Source: Candidatus Cloacimonadales bacterium (lineage in GTDB: Bacteria > Cloacimonadota > Cloacimonadia > Cloacimonadales > JAFGVF01). From it: a stretch of 64,000 bases of DNA. Below, piece after piece: positions 13,225-23,355 of this stretch. The notes below the pieces were generated by a model that saw nothing but the letters and a program-made list of their open reading frames with translations, was not told where the DNA came from and made no database searches. The DNA is taken from positions 1,312,001 through 1,376,000 of the forward strand of contig OY762964.1 of assembly GCA_963667035.1 (NCBI GenBank), given 5' to 3'. Positions within the stretch are counted from its first letter, which is position 1; each line of letters opens with the position of its first letter. The position numbers and the translations under genes are program-made.

Positions 13225-13812
13225 TTAATTCAAAAATTCATGAACTTTGAAACAACCTATATTGTCTATCCATAATGGTTCATTTTGATATGATGGAATA
13301 ATAAAGATTATTCTTCCATATTTGGCTGTCGATTTAAACAAACCGGCACTAATCTCCACTGCTTCCCAAGAATCTCCCGGTTTAATGGGTACAGTGAATT
13401 TATCTTTTAACTCGCCTTTTTTATTATAAGATCTGAATTCCATCTTAACAGTTGTTTTGTTAGCATTTGTTGATTTTACAAAAGCTTTCACATAATAACC
13501 TGCATTCTTATCAATGCTGAATGATTCGGACACTATTAATTTTCTTTGCCCCGTAGGTTCAATGAGCAATGAATTACTACCCTCAGCACTATGATTAGTA
13601 TCTATCTTTAACACTTCAATACTCTTATCTTTTGCCATTACTAACCAAGGAGTAGTGTAATTATCATCTTTGTTCAATGATTCTTCGAAACTACCGTTAA
13701 TAATTAAATCAGGTTTACCGACAGCACTCTCATCTTTAAACAAAATTGAGTTTTTAACAACACATCCCGATAGTATTAAAATAGATAGTAGTATGGGAAC
13801 TATTCTCATCAT
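13225..13812 (-). CDS. Lipoprotein with a carbohydrate-binding (CBM4/9-like jelly-roll) domain
   Basis: Lipobox LSGC; LIINGSFEE...AEGSNSL...LWIDNI. ATG at 13812 after GAGG. Confidence 0.7.
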   Translation of the reverse strand: MMRIVPILLSILILSGCVVKNSILFKDESAVGKPDLIINGSFEESLNKDDNYTTPWLVMAKDKSIEVLKIDTNHSAEGSNSLLIEPTGQRKLIVSESFSIDKNAGYYVKAFVKSTNANKTTVKMEFRSYNKKGELKDKFTVPIKPGDSWEAVEISAGLFKSTAKYGRIIFIIPSYQNEPLWIDNIGCFKVHEFLN

Positions 13813-13823
13813 AACCTCACGTA

Positions 13824-15044
13824 TCACTTTAATAAGCCTTTTTCCAATCTAAACTTTAAGATTAAACCGACTGCAATAGTATTAACAAGTAAATTACTTC
13901 CGCCGTAACTAATAAACGGTAATGGAACACCTGTTGTTGGCATTATTCCTATATTCATACCAATATTAACGAAGAATTGAAATGCCAAATAACAGATTAT
14001 ACCAACACACGCTATTTTTCTATCCCGAACAATAATCTTGTCAATGTTTTTAATTAACTTTGTTAAAAAAACGGTATATAGTATAATTAGTAACCCTGCT
14101 CCTAATAAACCGAATTCTTCACCTATTACAGAGAATATAAAGTCGGTATGTTTCTCGGGTAAGAAGTCCATATTTTTTTGTGTACCAAGCAGGAAACCCT
14201 TTCCATACAAGCCTCCAGAGCCTATAGCAATCTTGGCTTGAATAACTTGATAACCTGCACCCAAAGGATCGTGATTGGGATTCAGGAATGTCAGTATTCT
14301 TCCTTGTTGGTAGGGTTTAAACCCATTCCAAATAACAGGAATCATAAAGAAAATTACCCCATTAACTATATTCAGAATTGCATTTATAGGCCATGCGATT
14401 CCTCTCTTATGAATGTAGATAATTAATATTAATATAAAAAGTATAAACAGAATATTATTGAACGATAACAACACCGATAGTATGGGACTAATTATCATTA
14501 ATAAATAGACAAATGGAACTCCAGCTGCAGCATACATTCCAAAAAGTATCACCCAAAATACTATAGTTGTACCGAAATCCGGTTCTATCAGAATAAAGAA
14601 TATAGGTATTATTGCCGGGATGAGACCTTTCAAGAGGATTTCAGTTTCCGGCATGTGTTTCTTTGAAATAACCTTCGATATCATCAGAATCATAGTTAAC
14701 TTAGCTAGTTCAGAGGGTTGGAAGGAAAGAGGACCTAATGCAAACCAACGATGAGAGCCATTAATTCTTGGCATAAACAATACTAGTACAAGCATTAGGA
14801 TTGAGAGTATGTAGCCAGGGATATAGAATGCCTCAATTAATGGTAATGGAGTGTAGATGATCACTAATAGAGCAATAAAGCTAATGACAAAGAATGCTGT
14901 CTGTTTTAAATAAAACATATTGGTTGTAAGCTCATCCCCTACTTTAGTGGTTGATGCAGTATAAATACAGAATATTCCTACTAAAACCAATAGAACGTAT
15001 AGTACCATTCCTAAATAGTCGAAGTTTTTCCTAAAGTTTGCCAT
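13824..15044 (-). CDS. rodA: Rod shape-determining SEDS protein RodA
   Basis: QPSELAK, EPDFGT, LPEKHTDFIF, PFISYGGS; adjacent to pbp2. Confidence 0.93.
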   Translation of the reverse strand: MANFRKNFDYLGMVLYVLLVLVGIFCIYTASTTKVGDELTTNMFYLKQTAFFVISFIALLVIIYTPLPLIEAFYIPGYILSILMLVLVLFMPRINGSHRWFALGPLSFQPSELAKLTMILMISKVISKKHMPETEILLKGLIPAIIPIFFILIEPDFGTTIVFWVILFGMYAAAGVPFVYLLMIISPILSVLLSFNNILFILFILILIIYIHKRGIAWPINAILNIVNGVIFFMIPVIWNGFKPYQQGRILTFLNPNHDPLGAGYQVIQAKIAIGSGGLYGKGFLLGTQKNMDFLPEKHTDFIFSVIGEEFGLLGAGLLIILYTVFLTKLIKNIDKIIVRDRKIACVGIICYLAFQFFVNIGMNIGIMPTTGVPLPFISYGGSNLLVNTIAVGLILKFRLEKGLLK

Positions 15045-16815
15045 CAGCTAAGTCTCTCCGGTAATCATGATAAAACTTGAATATCTTTCCTGCAATTGGG
15101 GCAGCAGCACTTCCTCCATGACCTGCATTCTCTAGAAAAACAGTAACGGTGATCCCCGGATCATCAGTCAGATCATAACCTGCAAACCAAGCATGAGTAT
15201 CCTTCCCCTGATGATTCTCGGCAGAACCTGTTTTTCCATAAAGTTTTGAACCTCTGTATCGTATATGGTTAGCCGTTCCTTTTGATTCATTCATAACTTT
15301 CCAAAGTCCCTCTTGAACAATCTTAAGATTAGATTGTGAGATTGGAAGTACTCCTATATAATCATCCGCTGTATCACTATACTCAATCTCTTTATCTCCT
15401 ACTGTTTGTTTAAAAAGGTGAGGTCTAGTCCACTTACCGTCATTAGCCAAGGCATTATAGTAAGCACAAATCTGAATTGGAGAGACAAGTAACTCTCCTT
15501 GTCCAATAGATAAATTAACTTTAGGACCAATTATACCGGTATATCGTCCATAATTCTCTTTATACCAACCGGTGGATGGAAAGAACCCATTTCTTTCATT
15601 CAAAAGGTCAATACCTGTTTTAACCGTTAAAAAACTTTTCTTTGTATAAGCTCCCATTTCATCTAAATCCATATTCAGCGAAACATCATAAAAGAAAACA
15701 TCACACGATACTTTAAGAGCTTCTTTTACATCAAGTCTACCATGCCCGTGTTCATCCCAGCATTTAAAGTATCTGTTACCAATATCCATACCACCGTTGC
15801 AAAAGTGCATTTTTGTATATTCTGTAACTATATTATCTTCAAGAGCCATTGAAGCTACAACTGCTTTGTATACTGAGCCCGGAGGATAACCGGAATGGAT
15901 AATTCTATCCATCATAGGCTTTTTTTCATTATTCATTAATGAATTCCAAATATCTACATCAATTCTACGCATGAAGATGTTTTGGTCAAATTCAGGGAAA
16001 CTTACATAAGCAAGAACTTCTCCAGTTTTCTGGTCCATTACAACAACTGCTCCGCTGTACCGTTTAGGAACAATGTCCATTATATATTCTTGCAAATCAT
16101 TATCGATAGTAAGAATTAAATCCAACCCTTTCTTAGTCGGGATATCCGTTACATCCTCAAAAAGAGCCAAATTCCTACCTCTTGAATCTACTTGAGTAAG
16201 CTCCCAACCATCTTGACCTTTAAGAAGGACTTCGTAATACTTCTCAATTCCTGCTCTACCAATTCGAGAATTTATACTGTATCCTTCATCATTCAGAGCA
16301 TTGTACTCATTTGAGTTAATACCACCAATGTATCCTGTAAAATGGTTAGGATATTTGTATTCTCTTGATTGAGCCGACCCGATACTAAGAGAAGGGAAAA
16401 TATCTATTTCTTCGGATAACTCTGCATGTTGGTTTTCAGTAAGATTCTCTACTATCATAATCTTCATATAGGATTTGAATCTGTAATCAAATAACAATTC
16501 CTTAAACTCATCGTTTTCAAGTCCGAATCTCTTCTCCAGAAAAACCTGTAATTCACTTTTATCTCTAATTCTCACAGGTGTAATGTAAAGATTAACTGAC
16601 GGGATATTAGTGACTATAGGTCGAAAGTGTCTATCAAAAATCTCTCCTCTGGTAGCTACAACTCTACGTTTTCTTACATAGTTTCTATCCGCAATATTTG
16701 AATAGTAACTATTCTTCATTATCTGCAATCTAAAGAGTGAGATAAGGAGTATAATTACCAGTAAGTAAATTATTAGTTTTAAATAATCTGTTGTTCTAAG
16801 AGACTGTCTCATCAA
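15031..16815 (-). CDS. mrdA: Penicillin-binding protein 2
   Basis: RGEIFDR, PPGSVYK (SxxK), SCD, KTGSAE; within the mre operon. Confidence 0.92.
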   Translation of the reverse strand: MMRQSLRTTDYLKLIIYLLVIILLISLFRLQIMKNSYYSNIADRNYVRKRRVVATRGEIFDRHFRPIVTNIPSVNLYITPVRIRDKSELQVFLEKRFGLENDEFKELLFDYRFKSYMKIMIVENLTENQHAELSEEIDIFPSLSIGSAQSREYKYPNHFTGYIGGINSNEYNALNDEGYSINSRIGRAGIEKYYEVLLKGQDGWELTQVDSRGRNLALFEDVTDIPTKKGLDLILTIDNDLQEYIMDIVPKRYSGAVVVMDQKTGEVLAYVSFPEFDQNIFMRRIDVDIWNSLMNNEKKPMMDRIIHSGYPPGSVYKAVVASMALEDNIVTEYTKMHFCNGGMDIGNRYFKCWDEHGHGRLDVKEALKVSCDVFFYDVSLNMDLDEMGAYTKKSFLTVKTGIDLLNERNGFFPSTGWYKENYGRYTGIIGPKVNLSIGQGELLVSPIQICAYYNALANDGKWTRPHLFKQTVGDKEIEYSDTADDYIGVLPISQSNLKIVQEGLWKVMNESKGTANHIRYRGSKLYGKTGSAENHQGKDTHAWFAGYDLTDDPGITVTVFLENAGHGGSAAAPIAGKIFKFYHDYRRDLADGKL

Positions 16816-17290
16816 GAGTTATTTTCAATTGATGTAGTATTATCAATATAAATGCAACTATAATTGAAATGATAGTGTTAATGATAACATTGAGGAAAAA
16901 TTGCCATAACATGTTTGCCGAGAATGAATCGGCTATTGATTGTATCACATAAACTGAGAAGAAATATATAACATTCAAAGTCACTATTGCAAAGATGTTA
17001 TTAAGGAATTTCTCCTTATCTATCAAATTATGCGTTTGTTTCACTATGAAAGTGAGAAGTACAAAGAGTCCTGCATTCATACCTATTGTGAAGGGCGTTG
17101 TTAGGTCTAGTGCTAATCCCAAGAAAAAAGAGATTAACAAACCGGGCATCTGGTTATTATAGATATTCAAATAGATTAAATACCCAATGACCAGATTAGG
17201 CAGTAAGCCTAGGGCATCTATTGGAGAAAATACAAAGACTTGTATATAGAGAATAATTATTGCAAATATTATGCTTCTAATTAGCTTCAT
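16796..17290 (-). CDS. mreD: Rod shape-determining protein MreD
   Basis: Small polytopic membrane protein with PNL and GLALD motifs, located before mrdA. Confidence 0.85.
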   Translation of the reverse strand: MKLIRSIIFAIIILYIQVFVFSPIDALGLLPNLVIGYLIYLNIYNNQMPGLLISFFLGLALDLTTPFTIGMNAGLFVLLTFIVKQTHNLIDKEKFLNNIFAIVTLNVIYFFSVYVIQSIADSFSANMLWQFFLNVIINTIISIIVAFILIILHQLKITLDETVS

Positions 17291-17972
17291 GAACTTTACG
17301 AACTATACATAGTGGGGTCATTTCGTCACCCTGTCCTTGAGGATTATCCTTCATAACAGCTTCTATCATTTTTTTATCTATTCCGTTAGTAAATCCTATC
17401 GCCCAACTTCCACCTATATCATTAATATCCATTACCGCCATATCATAACCGAATTCATCTTTTACTTTCCGGGCTTCTTTTCGTGGATTCAAAGGACCTT
17501 TAATAACACATTCAGTATAAGGTTCTACAGGTGAGGTTGAAGCAGCATCTATCAGTCCCGCTTGCATACCGGCTACTCTATAAAAATCTCCTTTTCTTCC
17601 AAACAGCTTACTGATAGCTCCAACAAAAGCTGCAAATAGTATCCTACACGTACCGCATTCATCTATGGCACATTGCATACTGTATGGTGATCTAAGACCT
17701 ATCCCGTAAGGAACCTTTGCTACAAACTTCCATAAGTGTCTTGCCACAAATCCGACTTTTATCTTATCTACAGGTATTGCTCTACCTTGCATTATTGCTA
17801 ATGGACTTTCACTGATAGTTAGTAAATCCCCTTCTTCAAGATGAGGTAAGGCATATTCCCTAACAATCTCGATAATATTATCGGTAGGTTCCAAGACCTT
17901 TGTTTTGATAGGGATTCTCAGGTATCTATTTCCAAGGTACTCTATTTCAGGTTTATTCTCTCTCATCTTCAT
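17277..17972 (-). CDS. Coenzyme F420-0:gamma-glutamyl ligase (CofE)-like protein
   Basis: RIPIKT, GDLLTISES..AIMQGR, GDFYRVAG, ID, DINDIG, DNPQGQGDEMTP. Confidence 0.8.
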   Translation of the reverse strand: MKMRENKPEIEYLGNRYLRIPIKTKVLEPTDNIIEIVREYALPHLEEGDLLTISESPLAIMQGRAIPVDKIKVGFVARHLWKFVAKVPYGIGLRSPYSMQCAIDECGTCRILFAAFVGAISKLFGRKGDFYRVAGMQAGLIDAASTSPVEPYTECVIKGPLNPRKEARKVKDEFGYDMAVMDINDIGGSWAIGFTNGIDKKMIEAVMKDNPQGQGDEMTPLCIVRKVHEAN

Positions 17973-18732
17973 TTCCTTTAAAGTTCTTTAAAATGTACAC
18001 TGTTTTCAAGTTATCAATGATATTAAATGGTTCAACCTCTGCTGACAAATAGAGGTTATCTTTCGAATCGGTTATGCTCTTAATCACACCTACCGGATAA
18101 TACTTAGGGAAGTGCTTTGAAAGATTAGACACCACCACAGTATCCGCAACACTAATAGGTGAACCGGTCTTAACATAATTCATATACTGCACACCTAAAA
18201 GATTGGTTTCTATCACACCTTGAACACTATTGTGATTTAGTTTAACCGGAAGTTTAAATCTAAAATTAGATATTGGCAGTATCGTTGATTGAAATGCCGA
18301 GACCGTAGCAATCTTACCGACAATACCGACAGAAGTTACAACGGGATCTCCCTCTTTTATCCCTTCAAAGAAACCTTTATCAATAATCAGGGAGCGTTCG
18401 GAATAATTACCGGTATATCCTGATACATCGGCAATCACAGTTTGAGGATTATCTTCTGCATTCTCTTCGTCAAAAGGTTGTCCACTTATCTTTTGATATA
18501 AATCTCTGAATTTCAACACTTCAAGCATAAGCTTGGAGTTACGTATCTTTAACTCTCTATTCTCCGAAATCAATTCGACATTCTTTTTATAAGAATGTAT
18601 GCTGTTAACAAAGGGTAAAAATATAGTCTTAGATAAGAATTCTGCCTTTCTTAATCTTTGCTCCGGACGTCCTACAAAGAATATGAAAGAGATAATAAGC
18701 AGTAGTATAAATATGAATTTATCACGCGACAC
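17953..18732 (-). CDS. mreC: Rod shape-determining protein MreC
   Basis: N-terminal TM, coiled coil (ENRELK), IIDKG..EGIKEGDPV, FPKYYPVG; downstream of mreB. Confidence 0.9.
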   Translation of the reverse strand: MSRDKFIFILLLIISFIFFVGRPEQRLRKAEFLSKTIFLPFVNSIHSYKKNVELISENRELKIRNSKLMLEVLKFRDLYQKISGQPFDEENAEDNPQTVIADVSGYTGNYSERSLIIDKGFFEGIKEGDPVVTSVGIVGKIATVSAFQSTILPISNFRFKLPVKLNHNSVQGVIETNLLGVQYMNYVKTGSPISVADTVVVSNLSKHFPKYYPVGVIKSITDSKDNLYLSAEVEPFNIIDNLKTVYILKNFKGNEDERE

Positions 18733-18735
18733 AGC

Positions 18736-19773
18736 TTAATCTTCAATCTTCTTAATTAGAACATCATTATAGCGTTCAATTTCATCAAGAATCTGTCCGG
18801 AACCTTTTGCAACGCATGTTAATGGATCAGGAACAACATGAACAGGTAAGTCTACCGCTTTCATAATTCGCTTATCCAGTCCCTTTAAAAGAGCTCCTCC
18901 ACCAGTTAGGAAGATACCTCTTTCTGCTATATCTGCGGCTAATTCCGGTTCAGTATGTTCAAACAATTTCTTGATTGCATCTATCATTAAACCAACTGTT
19001 TCAGTCATCGCTTCCCTAATCTCTTCAGAAGAGATTTCTATAGTCACCGGATAGCCGGATACAACATTACGACCTCTAACTTCCATTGTAAGCTCTTCAT
19101 CAAGCGGGAACGCAGAACCGATTTTCTTTTTTATCTTTTCTGCTGTGAGAATACCTACAAATATACCATTCTTTTTTCTCAGGTAATTAACAATATCATT
19201 ATCAAGCTTGTCTCCACCAATTCTTATCGAGTTGTGAACAACTATATGAGATAATGACATAACTGCTATTTCACTGGTTCCGCCACCGATATCCATAATC
19301 ATGTTACCGCATGGTTTATCGATTGGGAGTTTCGCTCCAATAGCAGCAGCAATTGGCTCCGACACCAAATGTACTTCTCTTGCCCCGGCGTGAAGAGCAC
19401 TGTCCCTTACTGCACGTTTCTCCACTTCTGTAATTCCTGAAGGCACACACACAATTACTCTAGGTCTCAAAAGCAAACGCTTTTTTTGAGCTCTGAGAAT
19501 AAGGTTTCTTAGCATCATTTCCGTAACTTGGAAATCAGCAATAACACCGTCTTTTAAAGGTTTTATTACTCTCACTTCAGCGGGATTCTTTCCAAGCATT
19601 AATTTTGCTTCTGCTCCAATTGCAATAATCTTGCGATTGTCGGCAGTTAATGCTACTACAGAAGGTTCATTGATTACAACACCCATACTTTTTTTGTATA
19701 CCAAGGTGTTAGCAGTTCCTAAATCTATTGCTATATCGTTTGCAAAAAGCCCGAAGTATTTCAATAAGTTCAT
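18736..19773 (-). CDS. mreB: Actin-like rod shape-determining protein MreB
   Basis: IDLGTANT, DIGGGTSE, LTGGGALL. Confidence 0.97.
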   Translation of the reverse strand: MNLLKYFGLFANDIAIDLGTANTLVYKKSMGVVINEPSVVALTADNRKIIAIGAEAKLMLGKNPAEVRVIKPLKDGVIADFQVTEMMLRNLILRAQKKRLLLRPRVIVCVPSGITEVEKRAVRDSALHAGAREVHLVSEPIAAAIGAKLPIDKPCGNMIMDIGGGTSEIAVMSLSHIVVHNSIRIGGDKLDNDIVNYLRKKNGIFVGILTAEKIKKKIGSAFPLDEELTMEVRGRNVVSGYPVTIEISSEEIREAMTETVGLMIDAIKKLFEHTEPELAADIAERGIFLTGGGALLKGLDKRIMKAVDLPVHVVPDPLTCVAKGSGQILDEIERYNDVLIKKIED

Positions 19774-20544: not shown

Positions 20545-21867
20545 ATGAAAAGAGTTCTTTTAATCATTATTGCTATTACGGGTTGTCTATATGCTATGGA
20601 GCAAGTTGTGGTTTACAATAACGATTTGGCGTTGATAAAAAAAGAAATCACAATTGAAAACTTATCAAAAGGAATTAATGATTTTTCTTATGATGATATA
20701 ACATCAAGAATAAATCCAAAATCAGTAATATTCATGCCCAAAAAAGGAAGTGTTTCAATTATTGAGCAGAATTATGAATATGATTTGGGTAATACTGATT
20801 CAATTCTAAAAAAGTATATGGGAAAAACCATAAAAGTGGAAACCATTAAAGGAAACAAATTTGAAGGAGAACTTCAATTCAATGACGGAATTTCTATTGG
20901 ATTAAAAAGTGAAGACGGTACAATATCTCTGGTAGGCATAAAAGAGATAGAGAATATCAGTTTAGTAAAAATGCCTGAGAATTTTTATTTAAAGCCTACT
21001 CTCAAATGGAAACTTGAATCAAACAATCAACAGACGGTTAAAGTCGATATTAGTTATCTAACAGGTGGATTCTCCTGGGAAGCTGTTTACAATATGGTTT
21101 GGGATGATGAAAAACTCAGAATTAATTCTTGGATCAGCATGGATAACAACAGCGGCAAAGCACTGGAAAATGTGAAACTGAAGTTAATTGCCGGAGATAT
21201 AAATTTGATTGAAAAAGATGAAGTAAGGTTTGAGAGGTATGCAAAATCAAATTTACTTGTAACTAGCAGTGGAATACCTATAGAACAAGATTTTCATGAT
21301 TATCACATGTATACTGTAACAAATCCTGTTAATATAAAAAATAATCAATCAAAACAATTGCAACTTTATGAGACAAAAGAAGTAAATGCAAAACAAGTAT
21401 ATAAGTATAATTCATACAGTAGTTACGTAACCGGATACCTGAAGTTTAAAAACAGTAAAAAAGACGGACTTGGAATACCCCTTCCGGGTGGCAATGTAAT
21501 GGTTTATATGGAGGATAAAACTGATAATGAAATGGCTCTAATTGGTGAAACAGCAATCTCGCATACTCCCATTAATGAAGAGGTTGAGTTGGAAACAGGA
21601 AAAGCATTTGATTTGAAAGCAGAGACAATTGAAGTTAATAAACACTCAAGGGGACTAGCTAAATATCAGAGAGATATGAAGATCACACTTAAGAACAGAT
21701 CAAAATATAAGAAGACAATTGAAGTATTGCACAATTTCGATCACCAAGCTTTTATTAAATCTTCAAATCATGACTTCAAAGAAGTTAGTGCAGGTAAAAT
21801 ATCTTTTTCAATAGAATTAGAACCTAATCAAGTAAAGGATATTACTTTTACAGAGATTAGAGATTAA
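20545..21867 (+). CDS. DUF4139 domain-containing secreted protein
   Basis: Signal peptide, VYNNDLALIK, EQNYEYDL, SYLTGGFSW, GIPLPGG. Confidence 0.8.
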   Translation: MKRVLLIIIAITGCLYAMEQVVVYNNDLALIKKEITIENLSKGINDFSYDDITSRINPKSVIFMPKKGSVSIIEQNYEYDLGNTDSILKKYMGKTIKVETIKGNKFEGELQFNDGISIGLKSEDGTISLVGIKEIENISLVKMPENFYLKPTLKWKLESNNQQTVKVDISYLTGGFSWEAVYNMVWDDEKLRINSWISMDNNSGKALENVKLKLIAGDINLIEKDEVRFERYAKSNLLVTSSGIPIEQDFHDYHMYTVTNPVNIKNNQSKQLQLYETKEVNAKQVYKYNSYSSYVTGYLKFKNSKKDGLGIPLPGGNVMVYMEDKTDNEMALIGETAISHTPINEEVELETGKAFDLKAETIEVNKHSRGLAKYQRDMKITLKNRSKYKKTIEVLHNFDHQAFIKSSNHDFKEVSAGKISFSIELEPNQVKDITFTEIRD

Positions 21868-22110: not shown

Positions 22111-23355
22111 ATGAAACGATTAATATTAATATTGTTTGTTGCATTATTGCTTGTAGCCTGTCAGGATGATACAACAAGTTCTAATAACGGAGGCTTTACT
22201 CCAAAAGAATTTGTTACCCTTGATGTTGATCCTGATTTCAATTGGAGCAACACTAAATTCTTCACACTTGATATTCAAGGTGAAGAACAACTTCTAAATG
22301 GTAAAAAAGTCAATCTTGAATTTGACACACATATTCTTTCAAGTGCTATTGTTGAAAATGGTATGCATGAATTTACATTAGAGATTCCCAGTGAATTGAA
22401 CTCTGTTTATGTTGTTTGTAATGAAATTGGATTCAAACAAGCAATATCAACATCTACTAATGACCAAATAGTGAATCTTACCGGATCGGTTCAGGAGAAA
22501 GCAGTGAAAATCGATACTGATGGTGATGGTGTGGATGACTCAATTGACGACTTCCCTTCCGATCCTGAGAAAGCTATCAGAATTAGAATACCCGCAGTTG
22601 ATGAAAACTACTGGGTCTTTGAAGACTTGTGGCCTGATAAAGGTGATTATGACTTTAACGATCTGGTCATTCGTGAATATGTAGAATTTCATCTAAATGC
22701 ACATAATGAGTATGTCGGTGGATTTGCAAAACTTTGGATGAATGCTATTGGAGCTAACTTTCACAACAGCATATTCCTACACTTTATGGAAGCAAGTGTT
22801 GCAGGTGGTCAGACTGTCTACAGTGAATTAGCTGCTCCTGATTTTGTTGAAAGTATTCAAACACAGTTATCAAATATAAGAATAGATGAGTATACTCCAA
22901 ACACAATAGGAGCTTGGTATGACATCGAGTGGGAAGAATTCGGTTACCAAAACAATGGTATTGGCCCTTCTGGGTATCCTCATTCTAGAGAATTCATATT
23001 TGCATTTAATCCAACAGCTACTCAGCCTACTAATTTGACATTTGAGTGGTACATCTCTGCAGGTAACGAAAGACAAAAAGAAGTACATCATCCTTTGTTT
23101 GCACCAACAGCTATTGCAAATCCTATCTACTTTAATACAGGAGATGATGCTACAGATATTCCAAACCAATTCTTTTACAAAACAGCTCTGAATCATCCTT
23201 GGGTTGTTAAGATTTATGGATATTTCCATAATCCTTTAGAATTTGTTCAGATAACAGAAGCATATCCTCATTTCCAAGATTGGGCAGAATCAGATGGTGC
23301 ATTATATCCGGATTGGTACAATACTTACCTGCCAGAAAAAGTATTCAACCAATAA
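22111..23355 (+). CDS. LruC domain (DUF4842) lipoprotein
   Basis: Lipobox LVAC; DTDGDGVDD..DDFP, FEDLWPDKGDYDFNDLV, AYPHF..WAESDG. Confidence 0.85.
   Translation: MKRLILILFVALLLVACQDDTTSSNNGGFTPKEFVTLDVDPDFNWSNTKFFTLDIQGEEQLLNGKKVNLEFDTHILSSAIVENGMHEFTLEIPSELNSVYVVCNEIGFKQAISTSTNDQIVNLTGSVQEKAVKIDTDGDGVDDSIDDFPSDPEKAIRIRIPAVDENYWVFEDLWPDKGDYDFNDLVIREYVEFHLNAHNEYVGGFAKLWMNAIGANFHNSIFLHFMEASVAGGQTVYSELAAPDFVESIQTQLSNIRIDEYTPNTIGAWYDIEWEEFGYQNNGIGPSGYPHSREFIFAFNPTATQPTNLTFEWYISAGNERQKEVHHPLFAPTAIANPIYFNTGDDATDIPNQFFYKTALNHPWVVKIYGYFHNPLEFVQITEAYPHFQDWAESDGALYPDWYNTYLPEKVFNQ

Follow-up and report, generated by a model that had tools for sequence, protein, structure and literature searches.

The stretch examined here (64,000 nucleotides of contig OY762964.1 from a Candidatus Cloacimonadales bacterium, positions 1,312,001 to 1,376,000; 'the window' below) carries an operon for the Rod complex in which a gene for a CofE-like protein, a putative amide ligase, lies between mreC and mreD. 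The genes are all on the minus strand, in the order mreB-mreC-X-mreD-PBP2-rodA-CBM, where X is the CofE-like open reading frame (ORF). An earlier reading of the window, made from its letters without database searches (the sequence-only reading), had described the order mreB-mreC-mreD-mrdA-rodA as interrupted by a CofE-family ORF that overlaps both of its neighbours, and the Pfam and NCBIfam matches and the gene junctions bear this out. The operon begins with mreB (18736-19773; PF06723, 446.6 bits) and continues with mreC (17953-18732; PF04085, 106.2 bits; NF010532, 111.5 bits), the CofE-like ORF (17277..17972; 231 residues from its first ATG), mreD (16796-17290; PF04093, 44.7 bits; TIGR03426, 53.4 bits against a cut-off of 34.85), mrdA, encoding the PBP2 transpeptidase (15031-16815; PF00905, 202.9 bits, and PF03717 (PBP_dimer), 116.1 bits), and rodA, encoding the SEDS glycosyltransferase (13824-15044; PF01098 (FTSW_RODA_SPOVE), 296 bits). 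Directly after rodA lies a gene for a 200-residue protein with a CBM_4_9 domain (13225-13827; PF02018, 30.7 bits).

Read base by base, the junctions show that the 5' end of the CofE-like ORF takes in the mreC stop codon (17955-17953). Starting at the first ATG (17972), the ORF overlaps mreC by 20 nucleotides; starting at the second (17966), it encodes 229 residues and the overlap is 14 nucleotides. The second appears the likelier start, because an AAGGA box lies 7 nucleotides upstream of it and the length of 229 residues matches database entry P0001. At the other end, the ATG of mreD (17290) lies 14 nucleotides before the TAG of the CofE-like ORF, and so inside its 3' end. Since the N-terminus of the encoded protein is hydrophilic (MKMRENKPEIEY...) and has no hydrophobic stretch, the protein is probably cytoplasmic. 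The ORF has 1328 homologues at E<=1e-3 in one search and 883 representative clusters in another, and is therefore not a chance ORF.

Several database sources label the protein 'coenzyme F420-0:L-glutamate ligase'. It matches the F420_ligase family (PF01996) with 32.3 bits against a gathering cut-off of 25, over profile positions 2-145 of 218 only, and scores 15.3 bits against a cut-off of 180.65 with the CofE equivalog model TIGR01916. An AlphaFold2 model made with 53 family members had a predicted local distance difference test (pLDDT) score of 94.1 and a predicted TM-score (pTM) of 0.90. When this model was compared with the PDB using Foldseek, the only matches were entries for Archaeoglobus fulgidus CofE (2phn, 7uld and 2g9i; best 2phn_A, E 9.5e-9, TM-score 0.61), and the next match after them had an E-value of 0.3. 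VIA-align superposed the model on 2phn with a Z-score of 15.3 (182 residues aligned, root-mean-square deviation 3.2 Å, 18% identity), the next unrelated chain reaching a Z-score of 3.3. The fold of the protein, as modelled, is that of CofE, and the family membership claimed in the sequence-only reading is upheld by both the profile match and the structural superposition. A profile of the family found the same CofE entries in the PDB (E about 5e-6), and such a profile was needed, as a phmmer search of the PDB with the single sequence gave only a chance match (E 0.15). A search of the ESM Atlas returned only clusters of the same CofE-like family. No Mur-ligase family (MurC to MurF, MurT, Mpl or FolC) was among the Pfam and NCBIfam matches of the ORF, and the fold search pointed to CofE only. 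The prediction of a two-copy homodimer scored 0.00 against a mark of 0.42, a result that says nothing either way.

Comparison with CofE showed which parts of that enzyme are kept and which have no counterpart. The profile alignment places an N-terminal 'GD...QGR' segment on 'GD...EGR' of CofE (a shared 'GD...(S/T)...(Q/E)GR' pattern), and matches D182-x-N184, which hardly varies in the family, to the D and N of 'TDTN' in CofE; we take the Asp of this CofE segment to be a Mn ligand. The most conserved positions of the family are QGR, GxFYR, IDG/IDA, DxND and DNPxGQxxExTP; small, polar and acidic conserved motifs of this kind are typical of an active site. Residues 15-228 of the model superpose on residues 1-222 of CofE. 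The protein ends at residue 231 and CofE has 249 residues, so that the last ∼27 residues of CofE have no counterpart, among them R234, which is described as stacking on the isoalloxazine ring of F420 (PMC10861534). By the aligned ranges, CofE is also longer by ∼26 residues in the region from the D-x-N segment to residue 222, and we infer that this deficit may correspond to a missing hairpin that contacts F420. The fold, together with the 'GD...GR' and 'D-x-N' segments, is thus common to the protein and to CofE and the N-terminal part of FbiB (PF01996, TIGR01916; 2PHN, 2G9I, 7ULD). A common chemistry, in which an acyl phosphate is formed and then converted to an amide, would be expected by analogy (for the CofE mechanism, see PMC10861534 and PMC8498797). 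The differences are the low identity (16-18%), a score far below the equivalog cut-off, the shorter C-terminus, a different gene neighbourhood, and a host that lacks the F420 pathway.

That host genome is a single contig of 3.10 Mb, 98.2% complete, in which the CofE-like ORF is the only PF01996 gene. It contains no match to CofD (PF01933) or CofC (PF01983), and the best match to the CofH model TIGR03551 reaches 37 bits against a cut-off of 374.1; the remark in the sequence-only reading that the window holds no F420 biosynthesis gene therefore extends to the whole genome. The same reading had named a complete F420 pathway or a missing folC as facts that could explain the gene away, and neither is found here. 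A canonical FolC is encoded at G000:C1:533012-534214 (TIGR01499, 347.5 bits against 162.65), and we rejected replacement of a missing FolC as a role for the CofE-like protein. Replacement of a missing Mur ligase was rejected likewise, given a complete dcw cluster that encodes MurC (516 bits), MurD (400 bits), a MurE-MurF fusion, MraY and MurG. With MurC present, the lactyl carboxylate of MurNAc already has its ligase. The MurE-MurF fusion, which lies outside the window (G000:C1:1062217-1064988, equivalent to L100:4217-6988), is a single protein of 923 residues of the diaminopimelate type (NF008896, 751 bits; TIGR01085, 536 bits; TIGR01143, 453 bits). Searches of the host genome for the stem-peptide amidation families MurT_C (PF08353) and Asn_synthase (PF00733) found neither. 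Two PF02784 decarboxylases are encoded, both scoring below the lysA cut-off. About 3 kb past murJ (G000:C1:1395577-1397995; L230:261-2679) lie an ATP-grasp 'carbamoyl-phosphate-synthase-like' gene and, after it, a gene for a PF02784 decarboxylase that matches best the model of the N-citrylornithine decarboxylase FslC (227.5 bits, under the cut-off of that model); the pair may form a small amide-forming pathway.

We examined the distribution of the gene by a one-genome-per-species scan, which yielded 324 stretches that encode a relative; the locus counts that follow refer to the best 80 of these 324. MreC is encoded directly upstream of the CofE-like gene in 70 of the 80 loci, and MreD downstream in 66 of these 70, the other four having PBP2 after a gap the size of mreD. 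The ten exceptions comprise three Cloacimonadota loci (L011, L022 and L063) and seven from other phyla. The linkage to mre genes is accordingly phylum-wide, so that one refuting condition set by the sequence-only reading, a linkage confined to this strain, does not apply. Of 232 Cloacimonadota genomes, 184 have the gene, as do 124 of the 151 that are of high quality; in one genus it is carried by 14 of 23 genomes. A quick maximum-likelihood tree (85 rows, one row dropped) groups the Cloacimonadota proteins in one clade with a Shimodaira-Hasegawa-like approximate likelihood ratio test (SH-aLRT) value of 96, deep branches at 54-58% identity included. The three relocated Cloacimonadota copies are nested inside this clade. 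Together these features point to one old insertion between mreC and mreD, followed by losses and one relocation.

Eight Cloacimonadota genomes were inspected at the mre locus itself, five that lack the gene and three in which it has moved. All have the order mreB-mreC-(mreD)-PBP2-rodA-CBM, with MreD beside MreC in seven of the eight; in the remaining one (G103, which lacks the gene) mreD was undetected, and PBP2 follows a 489-bp gap that has the size of mreD and no room for both genes. Because the Rod operon retains the canonical order in these genomes without the CofE-like gene, the gene is dispensable to it, an accessory and not a core part. An NlpC/P60 gene lies downstream of, and convergent to, each of the three relocated copies. 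These copies also adjoin a giant ORF that runs off the locus (>1600 residues in L011 and L063, >1570 in L022); the one in L011 (L011:3-4892, minus strand) contains PKD and Ig-like domains.

Orthologues in other phyla are strikingly similar at 50-58% identity, a level of conservation that suggests a common, conserved substrate. Among the phyla sampled, the one whose records carry the labels candidate division TA06 and WOR-3 (TA06/WOR-3) has the gene in 19 of 41 genomes, and 13 of its loci were examined. The lipid II flippase family protein MurJ (PF03023, 307-380 bits) is encoded directly adjacent in seven of them (four divergent, three co-directional with frames that overlap or nearly abut) and one gene away, with scpB between, in two more, for a total of nine of 13. 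This linkage to murJ takes three arrangements, and the loci that have it belong to three separate clades of the tree. Armatimonadota have the gene in 11 of 51 sampled genomes; the ten loci examined include three with the order dacA-rluB-X, three with a PF00850 deacetylase gene directly upstream, and four with other neighbours. The PF00850 family includes acetylpolyamine amidohydrolases. The deacetylase genes belong to Armatimonadota/Fervidibacterota loci (L134:6798-7961 and L135:2275-3405, 286-289 bits; L136, assigned by layout), and all three loci encode a protein of 1427-1452 residues with no Pfam family directly downstream of the CofE-like gene.

Sumerlaeota have the gene in 48 of 61 sampled genomes, with neighbours that vary. 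The pair argD-argF lies directly upstream in three loci of the first round (L057, L072 and L076), and argD alone precedes the gene in L068. We dropped a link to arginine metabolism after finding argD or argF within 6 kb in only five of 20 further Sumerlaeota loci, with ArgF abutting the gene in L117 and L119. In 11 of the other Sumerlaeota loci 22 neighbouring ORFs were annotated; they include GDP-mannose dehydratase, Nramp, VWA, SSF transporters and TPR proteins, together with one NamZ exo-muramidase. No folate or cofactor gene adjoins a family member in any annotated locus.

The domain architectures of the family, counted in the 150 best of the 883 representative clusters, connect it repeatedly with the membrane. 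Stand-alone proteins account for 58 of the 150 and fragments for 12. A further 22 begin with one N-terminal membrane helix, followed by a domain of ∼150 residues that has no Pfam family and then by the CofE-like domain; 21 of these 22 have positive charges after the helix, an orientation that places the ligase domain in the cytoplasm. (The ∼150-residue domain carries a 'DGYWEA..KPG' motif, for example in P0141, P0154, P0165 and P0177.) In three others the CofE-like domain is joined to a multi-span membrane protein, which is a CDP-alcohol phosphatidyltransferase in one, PlsY in another and a protein of no Pfam family in the third, so that 25 of the 150 are membrane-tethered. Fusions to AsnB-type amidotransferases (8/150), to Amidase_3, a MurNAc-L-Ala amidase (6/150), and to a polysaccharide deacetylase (one) were also found. 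A hydropathy scan of four representatives of the Amidase_3 fusion and one cluster member found no signal peptide or membrane helix.

Fusion or adjacency to Amidase_3 marks a Bacillota-type clade. We collected 80 loci of this module in a metagenome scan and chose 33 that had a near-full-length match and usable flanks; one proved to have no module ORF, leaving 32. The next ORF clusters with the module, giving two adjacent ORFs, in 22 of the 32, and does not in the other ten (these have a single ORF or, as in L170 and L209, a second half that falls outside the cluster; the ORF caller was a simple one). Upstream of the module lie genes for a PAP2 phosphatase (9/32), a CtpB-like S41 protease (9/32) or a DedA/VTT protein (5/32). 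The first or second gene after it encodes a DD-carboxypeptidase of family S11 in seven loci, a MOP-family flippase in seven, an Orn/Lys/Arg decarboxylase (PF01276) in seven and a pyruvoyl-dependent arginine decarboxylase (PF01862) in five. These last two are unrelated enzymes, both of a type that makes diamine-like amines, and their occurrence at the same position beside the ligase is the best clue to its second substrate, which would then be an amine.

We tentatively favour the reading, which still falls a little short of probable, that the CofE-like protein is an amide ligase, dependent on a nucleotide, that joins an amine (a diamine, perhaps) to one of the carboxylates of a peptidoglycan precursor. 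CofE itself is reported to activate a carboxylate with GTP and then to join an amine to it (PMC10861534, PMC8498797), and the proposed mechanism follows from that precedent. The neighbours of the family (murJ, flippases, PAP2 and DedA proteins, the Rod complex, DD-carboxypeptidases and muramoyl amidases) are those from which we read a role at the cytoplasmic face of the membrane, alongside the lipid II cycle. The lack of a match to MurT_C or Asn_synthase in the host genome is in keeping with this reading. The enzyme would be soluble and cytoplasmic, having kept the nucleotide- and metal-dependent amide-ligase core of CofE but not the parts that hold F420. On the model of CofE, it would use GTP or ATP to activate as an acyl phosphate a free carboxylate of UDP-MurNAc-peptide or, more likely, of lipid II on the cytoplasmic side of the membrane. 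Agmatine, putrescine, cadaverine or another diamine or polyamine might then be joined to this carboxylate, or else an amino acid. The gene, presumably inserted once and early between mreC and mreD in the Cloacimonadota, would there be made together with the Rod complex. A more specific form of the proposal, that the family is an enzyme class that couples lipid II, at a carboxylate of its stem peptide, to diamines or polyamines (agmatine, putrescine, cadaverine), wired in Cloacimonadota into the Rod operon, is one that we regard as doubtful.

The sequence-only reading had also proposed ligation of an amino acid or diamine onto a peptidoglycan precursor, for instance at the D-Glu alpha-carboxyl or the MurNAc lactyl, and dedication of the enzyme to the elongasome. 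The first of these proposals gains from the murJ, Amidase_3 and decarboxylase, DD-carboxypeptidase, flippase, PAP2 and NlpC/P60 neighbours and loses from the Sumerlaeota, where the genes around the ligase mostly have no link to the wall. The second gained no support: the gene is absent from 27 of the 151 high-quality Cloacimonadota genomes and has moved in three, and in seven of the eight inspected genomes without it at the mre locus mreD comes directly after mreC. This absence also weighs against the ligation that we favour, as do several further observations. Five Cloacimonadota genomes that are 97-99% complete have no homologue, and in four of the five mreC is followed directly by mreD. Sequence alignment reached only one metal-ligand position of CofE, whose role as a ligand we assume. 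No amine donor is evident in the host genome, since tblastn found no decarboxylase of the PF01276 (Orn/Lys/Arg) or pyruvoyl type there, and murJ lies 62 kb from the CofE-like gene. Many of the fusions have no link to the wall (eight to TPR domains and one each to GNAT, M20 peptidase, adenylate kinase and HD domains), and those to PlsY and the CDP-alcohol transferase fit a phospholipid substrate as well as they fit lipid II.

Two of the alternatives keep the chemistry and change the substrate. The enzyme could form amides on a soluble metabolite or cofactor outside the wall (by glutamylating folate, as CT611 does, or another cofactor with a carboxylate, for example), with the mre site lending it a constitutive, growth-coupled promoter. 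That CT611 complements an E. coli folC mutant (PMC1971073) makes such a role conceivable, and the Sumerlaeota orthologues, at 50-58% identity, do sit among varied housekeeping genes, some of them beside the argD-argF pairs or the abutting ArgF described above; loss or movement of the gene, moreover, leaves the order of the mre operon unchanged. We nevertheless consider this somewhat unlikely, given the canonical FolC (347.5 bits), the lack of an adjoining folate or cofactor gene in any annotated locus and the membrane tethering of 25 of 150 representatives; it is also hard to explain in this way why murJ, Amidase_3, DD-carboxypeptidase, NlpC/P60, PAP2 and flippase genes recur beside the ligase in separate clades. 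A different envelope substrate at the inner face of the membrane, either the carboxylate-bearing head group of a phospholipid or a lipid-linked precursor of a teichoic-acid-like polymer or polysaccharide, would be in keeping with the neighbouring MOP flippases and PAP2 and DedA proteins, which also serve other undecaprenyl-linked polymers, and it would suit the fusions to PlsY, to a CDP-alcohol phosphatidyltransferase and to a polysaccharide deacetylase, as well as the CofE-like qimC of a Streptococcus pyogenes operon for teichoic-acid-like wall modification (PMC12803152). The lipid-enzyme fusions amount to just two of 150 representative clusters, however, the hydrolases fused to the ligase or encoded beside it are a MurNAc-L-Ala amidase and DD-carboxypeptidases, and the neighbours of the closest relatives are specific to peptidoglycan (mreC and mreD, or MurJ at 307-380 bits). 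We judge this explanation unlikely.

Two others remove or restore a function. If the CofE fold were reused without catalysis, the protein might be a regulator or adaptor of the Rod complex that senses, for instance, a nucleotide or precursor pool and acts on MreD, MreC or RodA-PBP2. Its position between two regulatory Rod proteins, with overlapping reading frames, invites this idea, and the partial match to the Pfam profile and the TPR fusions of relatives, which suggest protein contacts, are in keeping with it. There are orthologues at 50-58% identity with no mre gene near them, however, and the order of the Rod operon is canonical without the gene in the eight inspected genomes; the conserved motifs (QGR, GxFYR, IDG/IDA, DxND, DNPxGQxxExTP) look like those of an active site, and the amine-making decarboxylase neighbours and the enzyme fusions argue for chemistry. 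An adaptor of this kind therefore seems improbable to us. A genuine F420-0:L-glutamate ligase, the function that several sources give as the name and that the PF01996 match above cut-off would allow, was rejected, and we give it next to no credence: the TIGR01916 score is 15.3 bits against 180.65, CofC, CofD and CofH are absent from a 98%-complete single-contig genome, and the protein stops at the equivalent of CofE residue 222, so that the segment with the F420-stacking R234 (PMC10861534) is missing.

Among known systems, the chlamydial CT611 (FolC2) is a CofE homologue in an organism without F420, and provides a precedent for a different carboxylate substrate (PMC1971073). CT611 is found in the absence of folC and in a cluster with folate genes; the protein from the window, with FolC present and mre genes as neighbours, differs in both respects. 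A second CofE-like protein from a host lacking F420, qimC of the S. pyogenes qim operon, is encoded among genes for a wall modification, with its own role left unexplained in the account (PMC12803152). It differs in that its operon consists of sugar and teichoic-acid-like genes and its structure is reported to be very close to 2PHN, and by this description it probably belongs to another subfamily.

The type of reaction proposed for the CofE-like ORF is that of MurT/GatD and AsnB/LtsA, which amidate carboxylates of the peptidoglycan stem peptide by adding ammonia. Both act at the cytoplasmic face, depend on a nucleotide and convert a stem-peptide carboxylate to an amide, and AsnB-type domains are, as noted, fused to the CofE-like family in eight of 150 clusters. 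Their folds are unrelated to that of CofE, however, and whereas they add ammonia, the decarboxylase neighbours found here suggest a larger amine. A natural product of the kind of ligation proposed for the family is already known from the Negativicutes, where the chemistry of the wall has been known for some 40 years and the polyamine-attaching activity acts on a lipid intermediate. Peptidoglycan of these bacteria carries cadaverine or putrescine on the alpha-carboxyl of D-Glu, and the portions of the two papers available to us name no gene for the attaching enzyme (PMC10628300, PMC12826042). Because no gene is named there, the CofE-like family may be put forward as a candidate for this enzyme.

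Some further features of the window lie around the operon. The CBM_4_9 protein encoded after rodA has a hydrophobic N-terminus, and tblastn found it in the same place in most Cloacimonadota mre loci, those without the CofE-like gene included; it looks like a second lineage-specific accessory of the Rod operon. Upstream of the mre operon, on the opposite strand, are two large ORFs (20545-21867, plus strand, 440 residues; 22111-23355, plus strand, 414 residues), both with hydrophobic N-termini.

Our literature search, outside which most subscription journals fell, found no publication linking a CofE-like gene to mre genes, to murJ or to peptidoglycan. What would be new here is a CofE-fold ligase with a new substrate, probably one of the cell wall, for which CT611/FolC2 and qimC are the nearest precedents. 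The chemistry of peptidoglycan precursors is regarded as largely mapped, and to our knowledge the Mur-ligase, ATP-grasp and AsnB families contain all known ligases and amidases that act on stem-peptide carboxylates. If the reading that we favour is true, the CofE fold would be a new enzyme class in cell-wall synthesis, hundreds of 'F420 ligase' annotations in organisms without F420 would be corrected, and a gene candidate would be at hand for wall modifications of the polyamine type. The textbook mreBCD operon, on the same condition, could carry a dedicated enzyme for modifying precursors. If the more doubtful polyamine form of that reading is also true, the side-wall peptidoglycan of Cloacimonadota would be polyaminated during its synthesis, and polyaminated peptidoglycan would be widespread among many uncultured phyla.

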